64,000 nucleotides of DNA. Origin: an uncultured Coriobacteriaceae bacterium (GTDB lineage Bacteria; Actinomycetota; Coriobacteriia; Coriobacteriales; QAMH01). Location of the stretch: positions 3,288 through 67,287 of the forward strand of contig CAYSZR010000001.1 in the NCBI GenBank assembly GCA_964435565.1, read 5' to 3'. Made by a program: the position numbers and the translations under genes. Under the pieces are notes generated by a model that was not told the origin of the DNA, searched no databases, and saw nothing but the letters and a program-made list of their open reading frames with translations. This document shows positions 3,421 through 35,995 of the stretch, in pieces (within the stretch, counting starts at the first letter, position 1; each line of letters begins with the position of its first letter).

Positions 3421-4998
3421 ATGACGCGCAAAATCGCTATATTCGACACCACGTTACGCGACGGAGAGCAGTCACCGGGCGCGAGCATGAATGCGCAGGA
3501 AAAAATCGTCATCACACGCCAACTTCTGCGTTTGGGCGTTGATGTGGTAGAAGCCGGGTTTCCTGTTTCGAGCCCCGGCGAGTTTAAATCCGTCCAAGAT
3601 ATTGCGAAAATCGTAGGAGACAAGTGCATCGTATGTGGGCTTACACGTGCGGTTGAACATGACATAGATGTTTGCGCAGAAGCGCTCGCAGTTGCCAAGC
3701 GCCCCCGTATACATACCGGCATCGGCGTCTCTCCTGAGCATCTTGCGTACAAGTTCAAAGGAATCACCCTTGAAGAGGCCATAGATCGTGGTGTCGCGGC
3801 TGTCAGACATGCGAAAAGATACGTTGAAGACGTTGAATTTTATGCAGAAGACGCGGGACGTGCCGCCTACGAGGATCTTGCGAAGATGATGCAAGCGGTA
3901 ATCAAGGCCGGCGCAACCGTGCTGAATATTCCAGATACGACGGGCTATAGCATGCCGCACGAGTTCGGGAAACGTATCGAGTATCTTATGGAGCATGTGG
4001 ACGGCATAGAGGATGTCTGCGTGTCTGTGCACTGTCATAACGATCTTGGCATGGCGACCGCGCTTTCGCTTGCAGGCGTTCGAGCGGGTGCCACCCAAGT
4101 TGAATGCACTGTTAATGGATTGGGTGAGCGTGCGGGCAACGCCGCGATGGAAGAAGTCGTTATGGCCATCAAGATGCATGGCGGCGAGCTGGATGCCCAT
4201 ACAGATATCAATGCGCAGGAGTTGTCACGTGCCAGCCGTCTTGTCTCGTCGATTTCGGGAATGAGCGTCCAGCCCAACAAGGCCATTGTCGGTGCAAACG
4301 CTTTTGCTCACAGTTCTGGTATCCATCAAGACGGTGTTCTCAAGAATCGTTCAACGTATGAAATCGTCTTTCCCGAAGATGTCGGCGCTGCTGGAAGCCA
4401 GATCGTTCTCACGGCTCGTAGCGGGCATGCAGCGTTGCGAAAGCGTTTCGAAGATCTGGGATATACGGATATCCCAGATCAAAAGTTCGAACAGATACAC
4501 GCTGCGTTCCTCGAACTGGCAGACCAGAAGAGCAATATCTACGACGAGGATCTTCTGTCGCTTATAGATGAGCATGACAGAAATGAAAACGCCATATACA
4601 AGCTCGATGCCGTTCAGATATCTTGCGGTCAGACGCTTGTGCCTACAGCAACCGTGACCATGACGGATGCGCAGGGCAATACGCATACGGTGTGCGAGAT
4701 GGGCGTCGGGCCGATCGATGCCATGTATTCGGCGATCAACAAGGTGGTCAAGGCAGAAAATGACCTCATGGAATACTCGGTGCAAAGCGTTACGCGCGGT
4801 ATCGATGCTCTTGGCGAGGTGACGGTTCGTATTATGGCACCCGATGGGTCCATATTCACGGGCCGCGGAAGCGATAATGATATTACCGTGAGTTCGGGCA
4901 GGGCTTACGTCAATGCGATAAACCGCATGCTCGAGCAACAGGCCGCCGAAACCTTAGCGCCCGCAGACGAAAACGGAGATATTCCGCCCCATATCTAG
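3421..4998 (+). CDS. leuA: 2-isopropylmalate synthase
   Basis: MTRKIAIFDTTLRDGEQSPGASM, HCHNDLGMATA, and a C-terminal LeuA regulatory domain. Start moved from ORF-track 3280 to ATG 3421, which is preceded by AAGGAGA. Confidence 0.92.
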   Translation: MTRKIAIFDTTLRDGEQSPGASMNAQEKIVITRQLLRLGVDVVEAGFPVSSPGEFKSVQDIAKIVGDKCIVCGLTRAVEHDIDVCAEALAVAKRPRIHTGIGVSPEHLAYKFKGITLEEAIDRGVAAVRHAKRYVEDVEFYAEDAGRAAYEDLAKMMQAVIKAGATVLNIPDTTGYSMPHEFGKRIEYLMEHVDGIEDVCVSVHCHNDLGMATALSLAGVRAGATQVECTVNGLGERAGNAAMEEVVMAIKMHGGELDAHTDINAQELSRASRLVSSISGMSVQPNKAIVGANAFAHSSGIHQDGVLKNRSTYEIVFPEDVGAAGSQIVLTARSGHAALRKRFEDLGYTDIPDQKFEQIHAAFLELADQKSNIYDEDLLSLIDEHDRNENAIYKLDAVQISCGQTLVPTATVTMTDAQGNTHTVCEMGVGPIDAMYSAINKVVKAENDLMEYSVQSVTRGIDALGEVTVRIMAPDGSIFTGRGSDNDITVSSGRAYVNAINRMLEQQAAETLAPADENGDIPPHI

Positions 4999-5242
4999 AA
5001 GCGTTGTTTTGGGTATGGGAAGGGGAGTCTCAGGAGCTTGCGCATGAGAGCCCCGGGAAAAGCGAATCTCAAAAAAGCTGCAAAATCCGTTTATAAGTGG
5101 AAAACTCAGAATTTCCCCCGTTGGTCGTTTGGGTCTCTCCACACGGGCTGTTGATTTTGAAAACCCTGCAAATCTATGTCGCATCAAACGGGTATGGTAG
5201 TACAGCAGGGGAGAACTGCTAGATAGGGGATAGACCGTACTT

Positions 5243-6634
5243 ATGCCAGAGCTCGCATACACATCGAATCAGAACAGCAATATCGAACGCATCATGCCCC
5301 AGGACATCGACGCGGAAAAGGCGGTACTCGCGGCCATGCTTCTTGGCCTTGATAGCGAGGTCGTCGAAGAAGCGATGATGAAACTCAAGGCAGATGAATT
5401 CTACCGGCCGGCTCATCGTAAGATTTTCGAGGCGATGGAAGAGCTCTATAACAAGGGCGTTCCCATCGATCAGCTTTCGCTTGCCGACAGGCTCAAGAGC
5501 CGCGGCGATCTTGACGCGGTGGGCGGCAAGGCCTATATCGTCGAGCTTGGCAACAACACCTACGCTCTTGCAAACTGGGCTCATCATGCAGAAATCGTTA
5601 AACGCGAAGCTATGCTGCGCGACCTTATCGGCGCCGCGGTGCGAATCACCTCGCTTGGCTACGACGCTCCCGATGACCTTGACGAAGTTGTGGAAACTTC
5701 CGAGAAACTCCTTTTCGAAGTAACCAATCGTCGGGTTGCGACAAATTTCAAACGCATCGATTCGCTTGTTGTCGAGACGTTTAACGAATTGCAAGAACTC
5801 GCTAATACGAAGACCAAATATCGAGGCGTACGTACCGGTTTTAACGATCTGGATGATTTGTTCGGGGGGTTACGCGGTGGCGATCTGGTTATCTTGGCTG
5901 CGCGTCCCTCTGTGGGAAAGACTGCCCTTGCGCTGAATATTGCAAGCCGCGCTGCGCAGCTTGGCACGGCCGTCGCCTTCTTCTCGCTTGAGATGTCGGC
6001 AAATCAGCTTATCCAACGTGTTCTCTCGACAGAGACGCGCATCAATGCGAAGAAGATGCAGACAGGGCAGATGTCGGCACAAGATTGGACGACGCTGGTC
6101 ACGGTTTCGGATACGCTTTCCAAACTCAAACTCTGGGTGGATGATACCCCGAGTGCGTCGATTCTCGAGGTGCGTGCTAAGGCGCGCCGTCAGCTACGCC
6201 ATGTTGAGCCGGGCAAGGGTATGATCATCGTCGACTACCTCCAGCTCATGCAGCCGCAGAATTCGCGAACCGAATCGAGGCAGGTCGAGATTGCCGAGAT
6301 TTCCCGTGGTCTTAAGATTCTTGCCAAGGAAATGGACATGCCCATCATCGCGCTCTCGCAGCTTTCTCGTGCGGTCGAATCGCGTCAGGGCAAGCGTCCC
6401 ATTCTTTCTGATTTGCGTGAATCAGGCGCTATCGAGCAGGATGCCGATATCGTTATGTTCCTCGATCGTTCGTTATCTGAGAAAGAGGCAGATCAAGAAG
6501 AACGTCCGCCTTATGGAACAGCAGATGTCATTGTTGCCAAGCATCGTAATGGCCCCATCGGAACGGTGAGCCTTGCGTTCCAAGGCGATTTCACACGTTT
6601 TGATAATCTCGCCCATTCCGACGACCGCTACTAA
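5243..6634 (+). CDS. dnaB: Replicative DNA helicase
   Basis: N-terminal DnaB domain (PQDIDAEKAVLAAMLL), Walker A ARPSVGKTALALN, and a RecA-like core (IIVDYLQLM, SQLSRAVE, DADIVMFL). Confidence 0.93.
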   Translation: MPELAYTSNQNSNIERIMPQDIDAEKAVLAAMLLGLDSEVVEEAMMKLKADEFYRPAHRKIFEAMEELYNKGVPIDQLSLADRLKSRGDLDAVGGKAYIVELGNNTYALANWAHHAEIVKREAMLRDLIGAAVRITSLGYDAPDDLDEVVETSEKLLFEVTNRRVATNFKRIDSLVVETFNELQELANTKTKYRGVRTGFNDLDDLFGGLRGGDLVILAARPSVGKTALALNIASRAAQLGTAVAFFSLEMSANQLIQRVLSTETRINAKKMQTGQMSAQDWTTLVTVSDTLSKLKLWVDDTPSASILEVRAKARRQLRHVEPGKGMIIVDYLQLMQPQNSRTESRQVEIAEISRGLKILAKEMDMPIIALSQLSRAVESRQGKRPILSDLRESGAIEQDADIVMFLDRSLSEKEADQEERPPYGTADVIVAKHRNGPIGTVSLAFQGDFTRFDNLAHSDDRY

Positions 6635-32148: not shown

Positions 32149-32400
32149 ATGTGCGCGAATGGCGTGAACACACAGCAACTTAAAGATACCGTGACTCAGA
32201 TTGATGAAACGATTGCGCTTACGCGTCGTTGGACGCATCGTATGTACCATCTTGCTGACGGAGGTCAGATGGAGCGTGCGGCGCAGAAGCTTCAGGCGGT
32301 GCAGGGTATGCTTGACGAGGTCCGTTCAATTTTGGATGAGACACAGGACGCCATCGATAAAGATGATGCGGATAATGGCGTAACGGTGACTGCGGTCTAG
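32149..32400 (+). CDS. Small hypothetical protein (predicted helical)
   Basis: 83-aa ORF with the good RBS CTGGAGGAATACT-ATG. Helix-forming, acidic C-terminus. No recognisable family. Confidence 0.45.
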   Translation: MCANGVNTQQLKDTVTQIDETIALTRRWTHRMYHLADGGQMERAAQKLQAVQGMLDEVRSILDETQDAIDKDDADNGVTVTAV

Positions 32401-32410
32401 CCAGGCCGGC

Positions 32411-32803
32411 ATGATCAATGCACAAGAGACAACGCTTGTTGTATTAACTGCAGACACGCTGGATGCCCGCGTTGCATCTGCGCTGCAATCTGCAGCGCGG
32501 GCGCTCGGCCACGCAGATGGTTGCCGCATCGTCTTGCTTCCCAGTACGGGTGATTTACGTAAATTCGTCTATGAGAGTGATCCATGGAGCGTTATTGCCA
32601 TAGATGACGCTTCTGTCGATGCGCTGCGTACGTCGTTTGGCATGGACTCTTCTCAATTTGCTCATGATGTTCCGGCGCAGGCTGCTGGCTACATATTTGT
32701 TGCAGTTCCGGATTTCGCTTCCTGCCTTGATGATGAGGATGCCAAGCGTGTTGCCTGGCATCGTATGAAGGCGGCGGCGCATCCTGGCAATCCGCTCGGC
32801 TAG
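32411..32803 (+). CDS. Hypothetical protein
   Basis: 130-aa ORF 11 nt after the previous gene, with a weak RBS. There is faint resemblance to the C-terminal half of the UDG-fold, but no catalytic motifs. Confidence 0.4.
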   Translation: MINAQETTLVVLTADTLDARVASALQSAARALGHADGCRIVLLPSTGDLRKFVYESDPWSVIAIDDASVDALRTSFGMDSSQFAHDVPAQAAGYIFVAVPDFASCLDDEDAKRVAWHRMKAAAHPGNPLG

Positions 32804-32887: not shown

Positions 32888-32982
32888 GGAGAGATGGCCG
32901 AGTTGGCTGAAGGCGCTCGCCTGCTAAGCGAGTATAGGGTTAAATAGCTCTATCTGGGGTTCGAATCCCCATCTCTCCGCCA
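32888..32982 (+). tRNA. tRNA-Ser (anticodon GCU), class II with long variable arm
   Basis: Acceptor GGAGAGA/TCTCTCC, anticodon stem CTCGC/GCGAG with loop CTGCTAA. The variable arm is AUAGGG-UUAAAUAG-CUCUAU and the T-arm is TGGGGTTCGAATCCCCA. CCA is encoded. Confidence 0.9.
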
Positions 32983-33110
32983 GACGCATTTCATGCCGTC
33001 CAGAAGAAAGGAACTCTGTGAAACCCCGACCTCACAGTAGCTAGCCTTCTCCGGACCTCTTTTATGGTGGCCCGGGAGGGTCGTATCCATTTAAAGAGGA
33101 GTTCTCTTGC

Positions 33111-34448
33111 ATGATTTATCTGCGTCAGATTCTCAAACAGCCTGTCTATGACCAGACAGGGGAACAAATAGGTGTTATCAGCGATCTTGCCATTGCCACG
33201 GGCGAAGTGTTTCCGCGTGTCACGTCATTAGCTTTCGTCGGTCCGCGCAAGACGCCGTTTATGATTTCGTGGAGAAAGTACGTTGCATCCTATGATGGCA
33301 GCAGCGTGCATCTCAACGTGCCTTCTTCAGATATCCGTTTTTCATATCTGCAGCCAAACGAGGTCTTGCTTGCGCGTGATCTGCTTGATAAACAGATCGT
33401 CGACACGCAGGGCATGAAGGTCGTGCGCGTAAACGACCTTAAGCTTTCCGATAGCATAAAAGGTTTGCGTTTGCTGGGTGCTGAAACAGGTATTCGCGGC
33501 TTGCTGTGGGGCATTGCGCCGTTTTTGGAAAAGGCGGTCAACGGCATTGCGACTTTATTCGGACACCCGCTGAAAGAACGTCTTATTGCGTGGAACTATA
33601 TGGAACTGCTTGAACGCGACATGTCGCAGATTAAGCTTTCTATCAGCCATAAGCGCCTGCATGACATGCATCCGGCGGATATCGCCGATATTATCGAGCA
33701 ACTCGATCCGCAGCAGCGTCAGGCGGTTTTCGATCAGCTTGATACTGAGGCTGCAGCAGATGCAGTGGCTGAGCTGGAAGACGAATTTCAGGCAGACGTT
33801 ATCGATGACATGCCCGAAGGACGCGGCGCCGAGCTGCTCAACGAAATGGATCCAGATGACGCAGCCGATATTATTGGTGACCTTCCCTACGACAAGGCAG
33901 AAAAGCTTCTCAAGCTTATGGGTATGGAAGAAGAAGCGAGCGTACGCGCGCTTCTAGGATACAAAGAAGAGACCGCCGGTGGCATCATGACGCCCGATTT
34001 CGTCTCCGTTAACGACGACCTCACTGTTTCTGATGCGGTCGATGCCATTCGTTCGATGGATGAGGATCAGGAAAGCATCCATTATCTGTATCTTGTCTCT
34101 CCCGATGGCGTGCTGACCGGTGTCTTGAGTTTGCGCGAGCTTGTTATTTCCAAACCCGAAACGCCGCTTGATGATATATCGACCAGAGAGCTCATAACGG
34201 CTCCTCCTGAAATGGATCAGGAAGAATGCGCCCAGATGATTGCCAAATACGATCTTCTCGCACTGCCTGTCGTTGACGAGAGAGGCATCATGCTCGGCGT
34301 CGTTACTGTTGATGATGCCATGGACGTTATGGAAGAAGAACATGAAGAGGACCTGCAGCAACGATCGATTACCAGCCCATGGGTTATCGGAATCGTCGTT
34401 TGTCTGCTTTTGATTATCGGCACGCTCGTTTTCATGTTGAATAGCTAG
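33111..34448 (+). CDS. PRC-barrel / MgtE-N / CBS-pair protein with single C-terminal TM helix (MgtE sensor module without MgtE pore)
   Basis: MgtE-N-like helical domain (MHPADIADIIEQLDPQQRQAVFDQLD, AADIIGDLPYDKAEKLL) and a CBS pair (GGIMTPDFVSV; LLALPVVDERGIMLGVVTVDD). It ends with WVIGIVVCLLLIIGTLVFMLNS. Confidence 0.8.
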   Translation: MIYLRQILKQPVYDQTGEQIGVISDLAIATGEVFPRVTSLAFVGPRKTPFMISWRKYVASYDGSSVHLNVPSSDIRFSYLQPNEVLLARDLLDKQIVDTQGMKVVRVNDLKLSDSIKGLRLLGAETGIRGLLWGIAPFLEKAVNGIATLFGHPLKERLIAWNYMELLERDMSQIKLSISHKRLHDMHPADIADIIEQLDPQQRQAVFDQLDTEAAADAVAELEDEFQADVIDDMPEGRGAELLNEMDPDDAADIIGDLPYDKAEKLLKLMGMEEEASVRALLGYKEETAGGIMTPDFVSVNDDLTVSDAVDAIRSMDEDQESIHYLYLVSPDGVLTGVLSLRELVISKPETPLDDISTRELITAPPEMDQEECAQMIAKYDLLALPVVDERGIMLGVVTVDDAMDVMEEEHEEDLQQRSITSPWVIGIVVCLLLIIGTLVFMLNS

Positions 34449-34453
34449 GGTCT

Positions 34454-35749
34454 TTGGGTTCGATTATGATGGCGAGAAAACAGTCGATAGAACAAAATGC
34501 GCAGTTGGCCGCATCTCAACCGCGTGGCCGCAATCGTATCATTGTCATACTTGCCGCGCTTGGACCCGGCGTCGTTGCCGCTATGGCGGGAAACGACGCT
34601 GGTGGTATCTCGACGTATTCGACCATCGGCGCTAACTATGGATACGGAACCCTTTGGATCATACCCATCATGGCTGTCATGCTTGCTATCGTGCAAGAAG
34701 GCGTTGCGCGTATGGGGGCGGTTACGGGCAAGGGTTTTGCCTCGTGCATCCGAGAGAGTTTTGGAATACGCCTTACCACGCTTGCCATGGCTGCGCTTCT
34801 GCTTGCCAATACCGCCACAACGCTTTCTGAATTTGCCGGCATCGCTGCTGGTGCTGAGCTTTTTGGGATAAGCAAATACGTTTCTGTCCCGGTTGCCGGA
34901 CTGGTCGTATGGCTGCTTGTTATGGGCGGAAGCTACAAGCGCGTGGAGAAGGTGTTTCTTGCGATAAGCTGCGTTTTCGTCACATATATCATCTCTGCAT
35001 TTCTATCAAATCCCGATTGGGGCGCAGTTGGCGTTTCGACGGTGGTCCCGCATTTTCAAGGTGACGTGAAGTTCGTGAGTCTCATTATTGCGACGGTCGG
35101 TACGACCATTGCCCCCTGGATGATGTTTCTTACACAAAACAATGTCGTGGACAAAGGCGTGACACCGGAAGAGCTGGGCGAAGAACGTGTGGATGCGATT
35201 GGCGGCGCCGTAGTTGCCTGTGCAGTTGCGTGGTTTATTATCATAACAACCGGTACAGTGCTGTTTCCGCAGGGCATTGCCATTGATAGCGCCGCTGATG
35301 CTGCCAATGCGCTGGCGCCCATAGCCGGACAATATGCTTCGATCCTGTTCGCCGTCGGTTTGATCGCAGCGAGTTTTCTAGCGGCATGTGTATTGCCGCT
35401 TGTGACTTCGAGCGGCATCTGTGAGGCATTCGGATGGGAGCGCGGTGTCGATTGCACATGGCATGAGGCGCCGGCGTTCAAGGGAATCTATACTGCGATT
35501 ATCGTCATTTCAATCGGGGTGACACTTATTCCCGGCATCGATTTAATGGGGGTTATGCTCACTGCGCAGGTAATCAGCGGCGTGCTTCTGCCCGTGCTCC
35601 TTATCTTCATGATGCTGATACTCTCTGACAAACACATTATGCGCTCCTATACAAATCACCGTGTGCTCACTATTCTTGTCTGGGCGCTCATCGTGGTGGT
35701 TTTTGCCTTGACCATTGGCTATTTGATCATGACCATTCTTGGAATCTGA
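34454..35749 (+). CDS. NRAMP-related Mg2+ transporter (NRMT subfamily of SLC11)
   Basis: About 11 TM helices on an NRAMP fold. TM1 reads DAGG instead of DPGN (nt 34595-34606). TM6 reads GTTIAPW instead of GA.VMPH (nt 35099-35119). The ORF-track start is TTG 34454; ATG 34466 or 34469 are alternatives. Confidence 0.78.
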   Translation: MGSIMMARKQSIEQNAQLAASQPRGRNRIIVILAALGPGVVAAMAGNDAGGISTYSTIGANYGYGTLWIIPIMAVMLAIVQEGVARMGAVTGKGFASCIRESFGIRLTTLAMAALLLANTATTLSEFAGIAAGAELFGISKYVSVPVAGLVVWLLVMGGSYKRVEKVFLAISCVFVTYIISAFLSNPDWGAVGVSTVVPHFQGDVKFVSLIIATVGTTIAPWMMFLTQNNVVDKGVTPEELGEERVDAIGGAVVACAVAWFIIITTGTVLFPQGIAIDSAADAANALAPIAGQYASILFAVGLIAASFLAACVLPLVTSSGICEAFGWERGVDCTWHEAPAFKGIYTAIIVISIGVTLIPGIDLMGVMLTAQVISGVLLPVLLIFMMLILSDKHIMRSYTNHRVLTILVWALIVVVFALTIGYLIMTILGI

Positions 35750-35761
35750 GCGAGGTTATCT

Positions 35762-35995
35762 ATGCGTTGTTGGGAAGAGAGAGGCTGCGGAGGGTCGATG
35801 TCGGCTGACTGCCCGCATGATGCGACGGGGATCTGTCCGCGTACCTGTATGAACACGCTTTGTGACCGCCCGTGGTATACACGTGCAAGCGGCATGGAGA
35901 TGTTCGATGCCTACGATGTCGATTTTGGCGTTGCGCGCAAGGAAAATTGCCATAACTGCAAATTCTTCCTTGAGCGGGCTCCGCGTATCGCGTAA
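35762..35995 (+). CDS. Small Cys-rich protein (8 Cys; possible two-CW-like metal/Fe-S binding domain)
   Basis: 77 aa, MRCWEERGCGGSMSADCPHDATGICPRTCMNTLC...KENCHNCKFF. RBS GAGG lies 7 nt upstream. The gene is 12 nt after the NRMT stop. Confidence 0.55.
   Translation: MRCWEERGCGGSMSADCPHDATGICPRTCMNTLCDRPWYTRASGMEMFDAYDVDFGVARKENCHNCKFFLERAPRIA

Follow-up and report, generated by a model that had tools for sequence, protein, structure and literature searches.

The window analysed here is a stretch of 64,000 nucleotides (nt) from an uncultured Coriobacteriaceae bacterium (contig CAYSZR010000001.1). It is chromosomal (dnaB, purA and purD are present), and the nearest genomes are metagenome-assembled genomes (MAGs) from the human gut, with proteins 75-84% identical. 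Three open reading frames of this window (ORF1, ORF2 and ORF3) are the subject of this report. They lie on the plus strand and are separated by gaps of only 5 nt (34449-34453) and 12 nt (35750-35761), an arrangement given at these same coordinates in a first-pass annotation made from the sequence alone. ORF1 is related to the cytoplasmic part of the Mg2+ channel MgtE, ORF2 is a transporter of the NRMT type (NRAMP-related Mg2+ transporter) and ORF3 is a small, cysteine-rich protein. The first two are interpreted as a two-gene Mg2+-uptake cassette in which, on balance, ORF1 probably restrains the transporter at high cytosolic Mg2+. Among the Mg2+ importers of bacteria NRMTs are the fourth class; the structure of one of them, EleNRMT of Eggerthella lenta, has been solved.

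ORF1 and ORF2

ORF1 is built of a PRC-barrel unit, a second PRC-like unit, an MgtE_N domain, two CBS domains, a plug helix and one transmembrane (TM) helix (Table 1). Taken alone, the second PRC-like unit gives a weak Pfam PRC match in ORF1 (E=0.2); it aligns to amino acids (aa) 6-46 of the same protein by hhalign (probability 79%, E=1.6e-5) and in a homologue from Chloroflexota it attains Pfam's threshold (21.3 bits). Residues 145-418 are aligned by phmmer to MgtE of Thermus thermophilus (2yvx, E=8e-44), and the best matches of a fold search with Foldseek are the MgtE structures 5x9h and 2zy9. The five-helix pore domain (PF01769) has no Pfam match in ORF1. The mgtE equivalog TIGR00400 is matched only over positions 19-263 of 450, with a score of 211.7 against a cut-off of 232.75, and since this match is confined to the cytoplasmic half and falls below the cut-off, the MgtE membrane domain is absent. 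A hydropathy count finds one hydrophobic segment, after the CBS pair, and it aligns with TM1 of five-helix relatives; because this helix (aa 423-444) is the sole hydrophobic segment, ORF1 is tail-anchored. The AlphaFold2 (AF2) monomer model, built from 57 sequences, has a mean predicted local distance difference test score (pLDDT) of 69 and is confident for MgtE_N, for the CBS pair and for the near-continuous helices 400-421 and 423-444. On these profile and structure matches, ORF1 is the cytosolic sensor module of MgtE without the pore, and not an MgtE channel. The first-pass annotation had arrived at the same picture, of PRC-like N-terminal repeats followed by MgtE_N and a CBS pair, with one hydrophobic helix in place of the pore and the sensor thus detached from its channel; Pfam, hhalign, TIGR00400 and AF2 bear out each of these elements.

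ORF1 shares with MgtE of T. thermophilus (TtMgtE; 2yvx and 2zy9) the N domain, the CBS pair, the plug helix and eight acidic ligand positions. When the cytosolic Mg2+ ligands listed for TtMgtE (PMC5882242) are traced through the phmmer alignment, all eight are acidic in ORF1: E413 and D414 in the plug helix (TtMgtE E258 of site Mg2 and D259 of site Mg3), D249 and D402 (D91 and D247, Mg4), D381 and D405 (D226 and D250, Mg5), D253 (D95, Mg6) and D217 (E59, Mg7). Most of these positions are invariant or nearly so among 57 relatives. ATP contacts are partly retained, TtMgtE Y170, R187 and D188 corresponding to Y325, R342 and E343. ORF1 differs from MgtE in lacking the five-helix pore, Asp432 and the G-N-x-G-x-Q motif; it adds the N-terminal double PRC-like module, and two ATP-contact residues are changed (see below).

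ORF2 is matched by the Pfam Nramp profile (PF01566, E=1.4e-86) over positions 1-356 of 357, in keeping with the SLC11/NRAMP fold first assigned to it. Its best solved relative is EleNRMT (PDB 7qia, E=9e-168), with 64% identity over 410 ungapped residues, while canonical MntH structures match much more weakly (E~1e-29). The TM1 and TM6 motifs lie exactly where the first reading had placed them, and the alignment agrees with its view that the Asn to Gly, Ala to Thr and Met to Ala substitutions are of the NRMT type. The key residues D55, G58, E133, T224 and Q379 of EleNRMT are all kept, E133 and Q379 as E126 and Q372, and a canonical NRAMP site is ruled out by the same alignment. Ramanadane et al. 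2022 (PMC8806188) describe D55, G58, T224, Q379, E133 and the Trp-for-His exchange as the Mg2+-type site of EleNRMT; by their account the protein transports Mg2+ and Mn2+ without H+ coupling. By alignment, then, ORF2 is an NRMT and not a canonical Mn/Fe NRAMP. Given the 64% identity and these published properties, it would be a proton-uncoupled importer of Mg2+ (and Mn2+). Gene callers start ORF2 in identical public contigs at the ATG at 34466, giving a 427-aa protein and a gap of 17 nt to ORF1.

Table 1. Position and basis of the features at the ORF1-ORF2-ORF3 locus (window coordinates).
Feature	Position	Strand	Size or residues	Remarks and basis
tRNA-Ser(GCT)	32888-32982	+		5' boundary of the ORF1-ORF2 cassette; ARAGORN, Rfam
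Leader	32983-33110	+	128 nt	With Shine-Dalgarno-like AAAGAGGAG
ORF1	33111-34448	+	445 aa	Predicted tail-anchored, pore-less MgtE-derived sensor; phmmer, Pfam, AF2, fold match
First PRC-barrel unit	33111-33335	+	aa 1-75	Pfam PF05239 (aa 1-55), 38.8 bits vs cut-off 21.2
Second PRC-like half barrel	33363-33500	+	about aa 85-130	hhalign repeat match
MgtE_N helical domain	33666-33971	+	aa 186-287	Pfam PF03448, E=2e-29; contains D217, D249 and D253
CBS pair	33978-34340	+	aa 290-410	Pfam PF00571, twice; contains D381, D402 and D405
C-terminal hydrophobic helix	34377-34442	+	aa 423-444	Hydropathy count, AF2, membrane-domain alignment
ORF2	34454-35749	+	431 aa	From TTG at 34454; NRMT-type SLC11 transporter by alignment
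TM1 motif DAGG	34595-34606	+	aa 48-51	D48 and G51 equal EleNRMT D55 and G58
TM6 motif TTIAPW	35102-35119	+		T217 equals EleNRMT T224; A220 replaces Met; W222 replaces the first His (helix 6b)
ORF3	35762-35995	+	77 aa, 8 Cys	Adjacent gene outside the transporter module

Distribution of the pair and forms of the sensor

A scan based on ORF2, with one genome per species, gave 80 loci, all within Coriobacteriia. In 79 of these a homologue of ORF1, encoded on the same strand, lies immediately upstream; the contig of the eightieth is too short to tell. The gap between the two genes is often short, or the genes overlap. The sensor has one C-terminal helix at 33 loci (445-500 aa where complete), which include Slackia, Eggerthella, Gordonibacter, Adlercreutzia, Raoultibacter, Ellagibacter and Senegalimassilia; at the other 47, among them Collinsella and Atopobium, it is a long form of 614-631 aa with four or five helices. 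Related Eggerthellaceae, among them Eggerthella sinensis (L028), likewise carry the sensor gene upstream, as in the window.

The sensor family itself was searched for exhaustively with HMMER in 1.84 billion cluster representatives, and the pairing recurs outside Coriobacteriia. Soluble sensors adjoin an Nramp gene in Chloroflexota (L088, L090, L091), in a Bacillota MAG (L099) and, with a 4-nt overlap, in a 420-aa group whose named members are Nitrospirota (L087, a genome for which that assignment is probable); in an Armatimonadota MAG (L094) the adjoining sensor is a 598-aa five-helix protein. The partner transporters in L087, L088 and L090 carry DAGG or DASG together with TTI(A/T)P(W/Y). The soluble sensor of a further Chloroflexota genome (L089) is accompanied only by a shortened Nramp of 255 aa, beyond a small ORF on the opposite strand. 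Two unassigned contigs are exceptions to the adjacency: L095, with a 656-aa sensor bearing a Pfam MgtE membrane domain, and L100, with a one-helix sensor (3501-4835) about 40% identical to ORF1. The genes downstream of the latter are those found downstream of Nramp in L081, which suggests that the transporter was lost and the sensor kept. Pairing of the ORF1-ORF2 type is a conserved unit across phyla. The adjacency thus reaches beyond close relatives (79 of 79 informative Coriobacteriia loci, and other phyla), a point on which the first-pass annotation had made its reading depend.

Nearly all N-terminally complete sequences among the best 150 matches have the layout PRC-PRC-MgtE_N-CBS. They differ in what follows it, and three C-terminal types can be distinguished: soluble proteins of ~405-435 aa, one-helix proteins of ~445 aa, and five-helix proteins of ~600-650 aa. 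The five-helix domain of the long form aligns along its whole length with the MgtE membrane domain; this homology rests on full-length phmmer and a multiple alignment, as only 1 of 5 five-helix tails of long relatives reaches Pfam PF01769. In the multiple alignment the five-helix relatives linked to NRMT are without the G-N-x-G-x-Q motif and Asp432, the regions of TM2 GGNTGNQ and TM5 Asp432 being replaced, for example, by RTGEESSSRA and ASMLFA. From their sequences, the sensor forms can be read as a series that runs from channel to dead pore, tail anchor and soluble protein.

Several of the soluble sensors (P0171, P0188, P0237, P0278, P0261) end in a Trp and a polybasic tail, such as LPTAWKKRLPRL, or in a polybasic tail only, at the position where ORF1 has the plug-helix acidic residues and the TM helix. 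The polybasic tail may be a peripheral membrane-binding motif. In the long sensors P0156, P0167 and P0194 (749-771 aa) the C-terminus is extended by a tail with very many Asp, Glu and Trp residues, such as DWDDWGEGDWDDWGDEHWGEGDWDEGYW.

In two assemblies (L092:1940-5884 and L093:462-4406) the PRC-PRC-MgtE_N-CBS module is fused in frame to a P-type ATPase of the MgtA type, recognised by DKTGTLT and LTPEMLPMIV, to give a protein of 1314 aa. The reading frame is intact in both assemblies, which differ by 1 nt in 3945, and its sensor module is 52% identical to ORF1. Downstream of it follow a 621-aa long-form sensor, with a degenerate five-helix domain, and then an NRMT. The fusion indicates that the sensor module also serves a different Mg2+ transporter. 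A wider proposal, tentative and with a little less than an even chance of being correct, is that PRC-PRC-MgtE_N-CBS represents a portable Mg2+ gate, joined in evolution to three uptake systems of unrelated structure: its own MgtE pore, the LeuT-fold NRMT, regulated in trans by a soluble, tail-anchored or dead-pore form, and, by direct fusion, an MgtA-type ATPase; and that the Coriobacteriia record the passage from channel to pseudo-channel to tail-anchored regulator.

Boundaries of the cassette and ORF3

The contig L085 is syntenic with the window from 31.9 to 40.5 kb, and contains tRNA-Arg, an 83-aa gene, a 130-aa gene, tRNA-Ser, ORF3, iorB, iorA and thrC, while exactly the ORF1-ORF2 pair is missing from it. 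Homology breaks off at the 3' terminus of tRNA-Ser and restarts at the start codon of ORF3, so that the 2.78-kb cassette (32983-35761 of the window) is replaced in L085 by 4803-5000. ORF1 and ORF2 occur or are missing together, by insertion or deletion beside a tRNA gene. Relative to the nearest relative, the ratio of nonsynonymous to synonymous substitution rates (dN/dS) is 0.05 for ORF1, 0.09 for ORF2 and 0.05-0.10 for ORF3, rough values because dS is saturated. All three genes are under purifying selection, and ratios this low show that they are not a chance arrangement.

No riboswitch was matched in the ORF1 leader by Rfam at gathering thresholds, and an M-box was not found upstream of ORF1 by an Rfam search even at E<=10. 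A simple promoter scan called no sigma-70-like site in the 128-nt leader, and in the combined promoter and terminator scan no signal exceeded the shuffled background. Upstream of the tRNA gene, two small plus-strand ORFs (32149-32400, 83 aa, and 32411-32803, 130 aa) are kept in L085 and in identical public contigs; neither has a Pfam match. On the other side, convergent iorB- and iorA-like genes start 3 nt past ORF3.

The eight cysteines of ORF3 are conserved in 14 homologues, in the motifs C-W-E..G-C, C-P-H, C-P-R.C and C..C. Public gene calls start the protein at Met13, which shortens it to 65 aa; since almost all of the 14 homologues in the alignment keep the N-terminal CWE..GC motif, the 77-aa reading is the right one. 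Neither Pfam nor NCBIfam gives a match at E<=0.1, and the AF2 model (14 sequences, mean pLDDT 50.7) has no confident fold. A search of 5.8 billion clusters yields 20 homologous proteins, all at least 61% identical. Homologues occur at two of the 80 Coriobacteriia NRMT loci (L001 and L002), where, as in the window, ORF3 starts on the same strand 12-15 nt past the stop of ORF2. In L082 and L084 a TOBE gene on the opposite strand stands between Nramp and the ORF3 homologue, followed by TetR and MMPL genes. In L085 and L086 the homologue sits beside iorB, iorA and thrC with its own 198-nt spacer and with no sensor or NRMT upstream. ORF3 is therefore a real, lineage-restricted gene that stays at the ior locus where the cassette is absent, a resident neighbour abutted by the cassette and not a subunit of it. 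This overturns the suggestion of the first-pass annotation that an 8-Cys protein supplies a third subunit: its homologues are confined to a narrow lineage, are separated from Nramp in L082/L084 and are cassette-free in L085/L086. In the Bacillota MAG L099, a 66-aa Cys-rich DUF1540 gene of unrelated sequence (6224-6424) follows the sensor-NRMT pair; its position is probably a coincidence.

Regulation in trans and its alternatives

The pairing, which the first-pass annotation had implied to be new, was reported together with the idea of a regulator by Shin et al. 2014 (PMC4072509). They found that most NrmT genes adjoin a gene for a homologue of MgtE's N-terminal cytoplasmic domain, and speculated that the partner provides cytoplasmic feedback regulation or chaperone activity. 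Compared by description, ORF1 is of their partner type, its homology being limited to the cytoplasmic part of MgtE and its gene adjacent in the same orientation. As in the 'mgtE-nramp' operons (C. acetobutylicum Ca_c0685 NrmT; A. capsulatum ACP2976/2977), the MgtE-cytoplasmic homologue stands directly upstream of a gene of the NrmT clade. The locus differs from many of these operons in that no M-box precedes ORF1, although an M-box was present upstream in many but not all members of that study and was not treated as defining; a further difference is the C-terminal membrane helix of ORF1. The passages of their paper used for this comparison make no mention of the PRC-like module, of membrane-anchored and five-helix forms or of the ATPase fusion. 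A literature search for subsequent functional studies of the NrmT partner yields only the 2014 paper, and no paper combining PRC-barrel and MgtE was found.

The most economical reading of ORF1 makes it a regulator that responds to Mg2+ and acts in trans. Cytosolic domains that sense Mg2+ gate both of the classical Mg2+ channels (PMC4072509), while NRMT has no cytosolic domain, and hence no sensor domain of its own, and no H+ coupling; a sensor acting in trans would fill this gap. ORF1 would then descend from an MgtE channel that lost its pore but kept the N and CBS sensor, the plug helix and one membrane helix. Probably dimeric like MgtE, it would sit beside NRMT at the inner face of the membrane. 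At high cytosolic Mg2+ the N and CBS domains would be clamped together, as they are in MgtE, and the rigid protein would restrain the transporter through the PRC module, the tail helix or both; as Mg2+ falls, the clamp would open and uptake by NRMT would resume. The basis for this reading consists of protein identities, the acidic ligands, the adjacency, purifying selection, the joint presence or absence of the two genes, and the ATPase fusion. From these we infer physical contact between the two proteins, their stoichiometry and the sign of the regulation. The best-conserved segment of ORF1, aa 76-127 (33336-33491), has a mean column identity of 0.90, compared with 0.72-0.78 for the CBS pair and MgtE_N, and the second PRC-like half barrel falls within it. 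High conservation combined with low AF2 scores (pLDDT 26-38) suggests that this segment is a surface folding onto a partner.

Several observations weigh against such a brake. The same segment 76-127 has no confident structure in the AF2 monomer model. Of the ATP contacts, TtMgtE N203 is replaced by T358 and the stacking F227 by L382, so that the ORF1 sensor may respond differently from MgtE. Soluble relatives are without the plug-helix acidic residues, which implies that the route of transmission is not the same in all forms, and the one-helix sensor of L100 has no adjacent Nramp. No papers were found that show an interaction of an ORF1-type protein with NRMT or an effect on transport. When the A. 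capsulatum pair was co-expressed, a mutant in Mg2+ transport was rescued no better (Shin et al. 2014, PMC4072509); as the assay measured rescue at limiting Mg2+, this result says nothing about a brake. In MgtE mutants, loss of gating came to light through hypersensitivity to Co2+, Ni2+, Mn2+ or high Mg2+ (PMC5529423).

A different role at the same transporter, and a different target altogether, have to be weighed against regulation of NRMT. PRC barrels serve as protein-binding modules in other systems. Conserved adjacency with overlapping genes would also fit if ORF1 were a positive accessory factor of NRMT, engaged in its folding, insertion, stability or metal hand-off, a chaperone role that Shin et al. 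offered as an alternative (PMC4072509). It is unlikely to be one, given that NrmT of C. acetobutylicum restored growth without its partner (PMC4072509), that the function and structure of EleNRMT were described in a paper with no partner gene, operon or accessory protein named in its main text (PMC8806188), and that a pure assembly role leaves the retention of all eight Mg2+-ligand positions unexplained. CBS pairs, as the fold matches illustrate, are general ligand-sensing modules, and ORF1 might sense Mg2+ or an adenine nucleotide through its pair and act elsewhere, the operon serving co-expression only. The orphan sensor of L100 and the PRC-MgtE protein that stands alone in L095, with a Pfam-detectable membrane domain, could be taken in that sense. 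Such a target is rendered quite improbable by the adjacency in all 79 informative Coriobacteriia loci and its recurrence in other phyla, by the two genes being present or absent together and by the direct fusion of the sensor module to another Mg2+ transporter; moreover, Pfam and NCBIfam searches find no DNA-binding or enzymatic output domain in ORF1.

The remaining two proposals are contradicted by the comparative and conservation data. That the 8-Cys ORF3 is the third component of a three-subunit complex would agree with its position 12-15 nt past ORF2, on the same strand, in the window, L001 and L002, and with its purifying selection, but is highly improbable when 78 of the 80 related loci are without it, 5.8 billion clusters contain only 20 homologues, a TOBE gene intervenes in L082/L084, L085/L086 keep it without sensor or NRMT, and no other third gene is conserved downstream of NRMT among the 80 Coriobacteriia loci. 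Closely related five-helix proteins, 60-66% identical to ORF1, carry an additional MgtE-like domain, and next to them ORF1 looks truncated. To regard it on that account as a functionless, decaying remnant of mgtE is hardly credible for a gene with a dN/dS of ~0.05, a length steady at 445-470 aa across Eggerthellaceae genera, no frame disruptions, mean column identities of 0.72-0.90 across its domains and an architecture that recurs in several phyla.

The window therefore adds no new kind of system; it presents a known gene pair with family features that are undescribed. No published description was found of the eight acidic ligand positions, the three C-terminal forms, the ATPase fusion or the cassette-free syntenic relative. 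The comparative data single out the residues D249/D402, D381/D405 and E413/D414, and aa 76-127 as the segment of ORF1 most likely to form an interface. Natural controls are supplied by the soluble, one-helix, dead-pore and ATPase-fused forms and by the cassette-free genomes. The role of the nearly invariable MgtE-like neighbour of NRMT, a question raised in 2014, is now directly testable, and the pairing bears on how a cell avoids Mg2+ overload through a uniporter that is not coupled.

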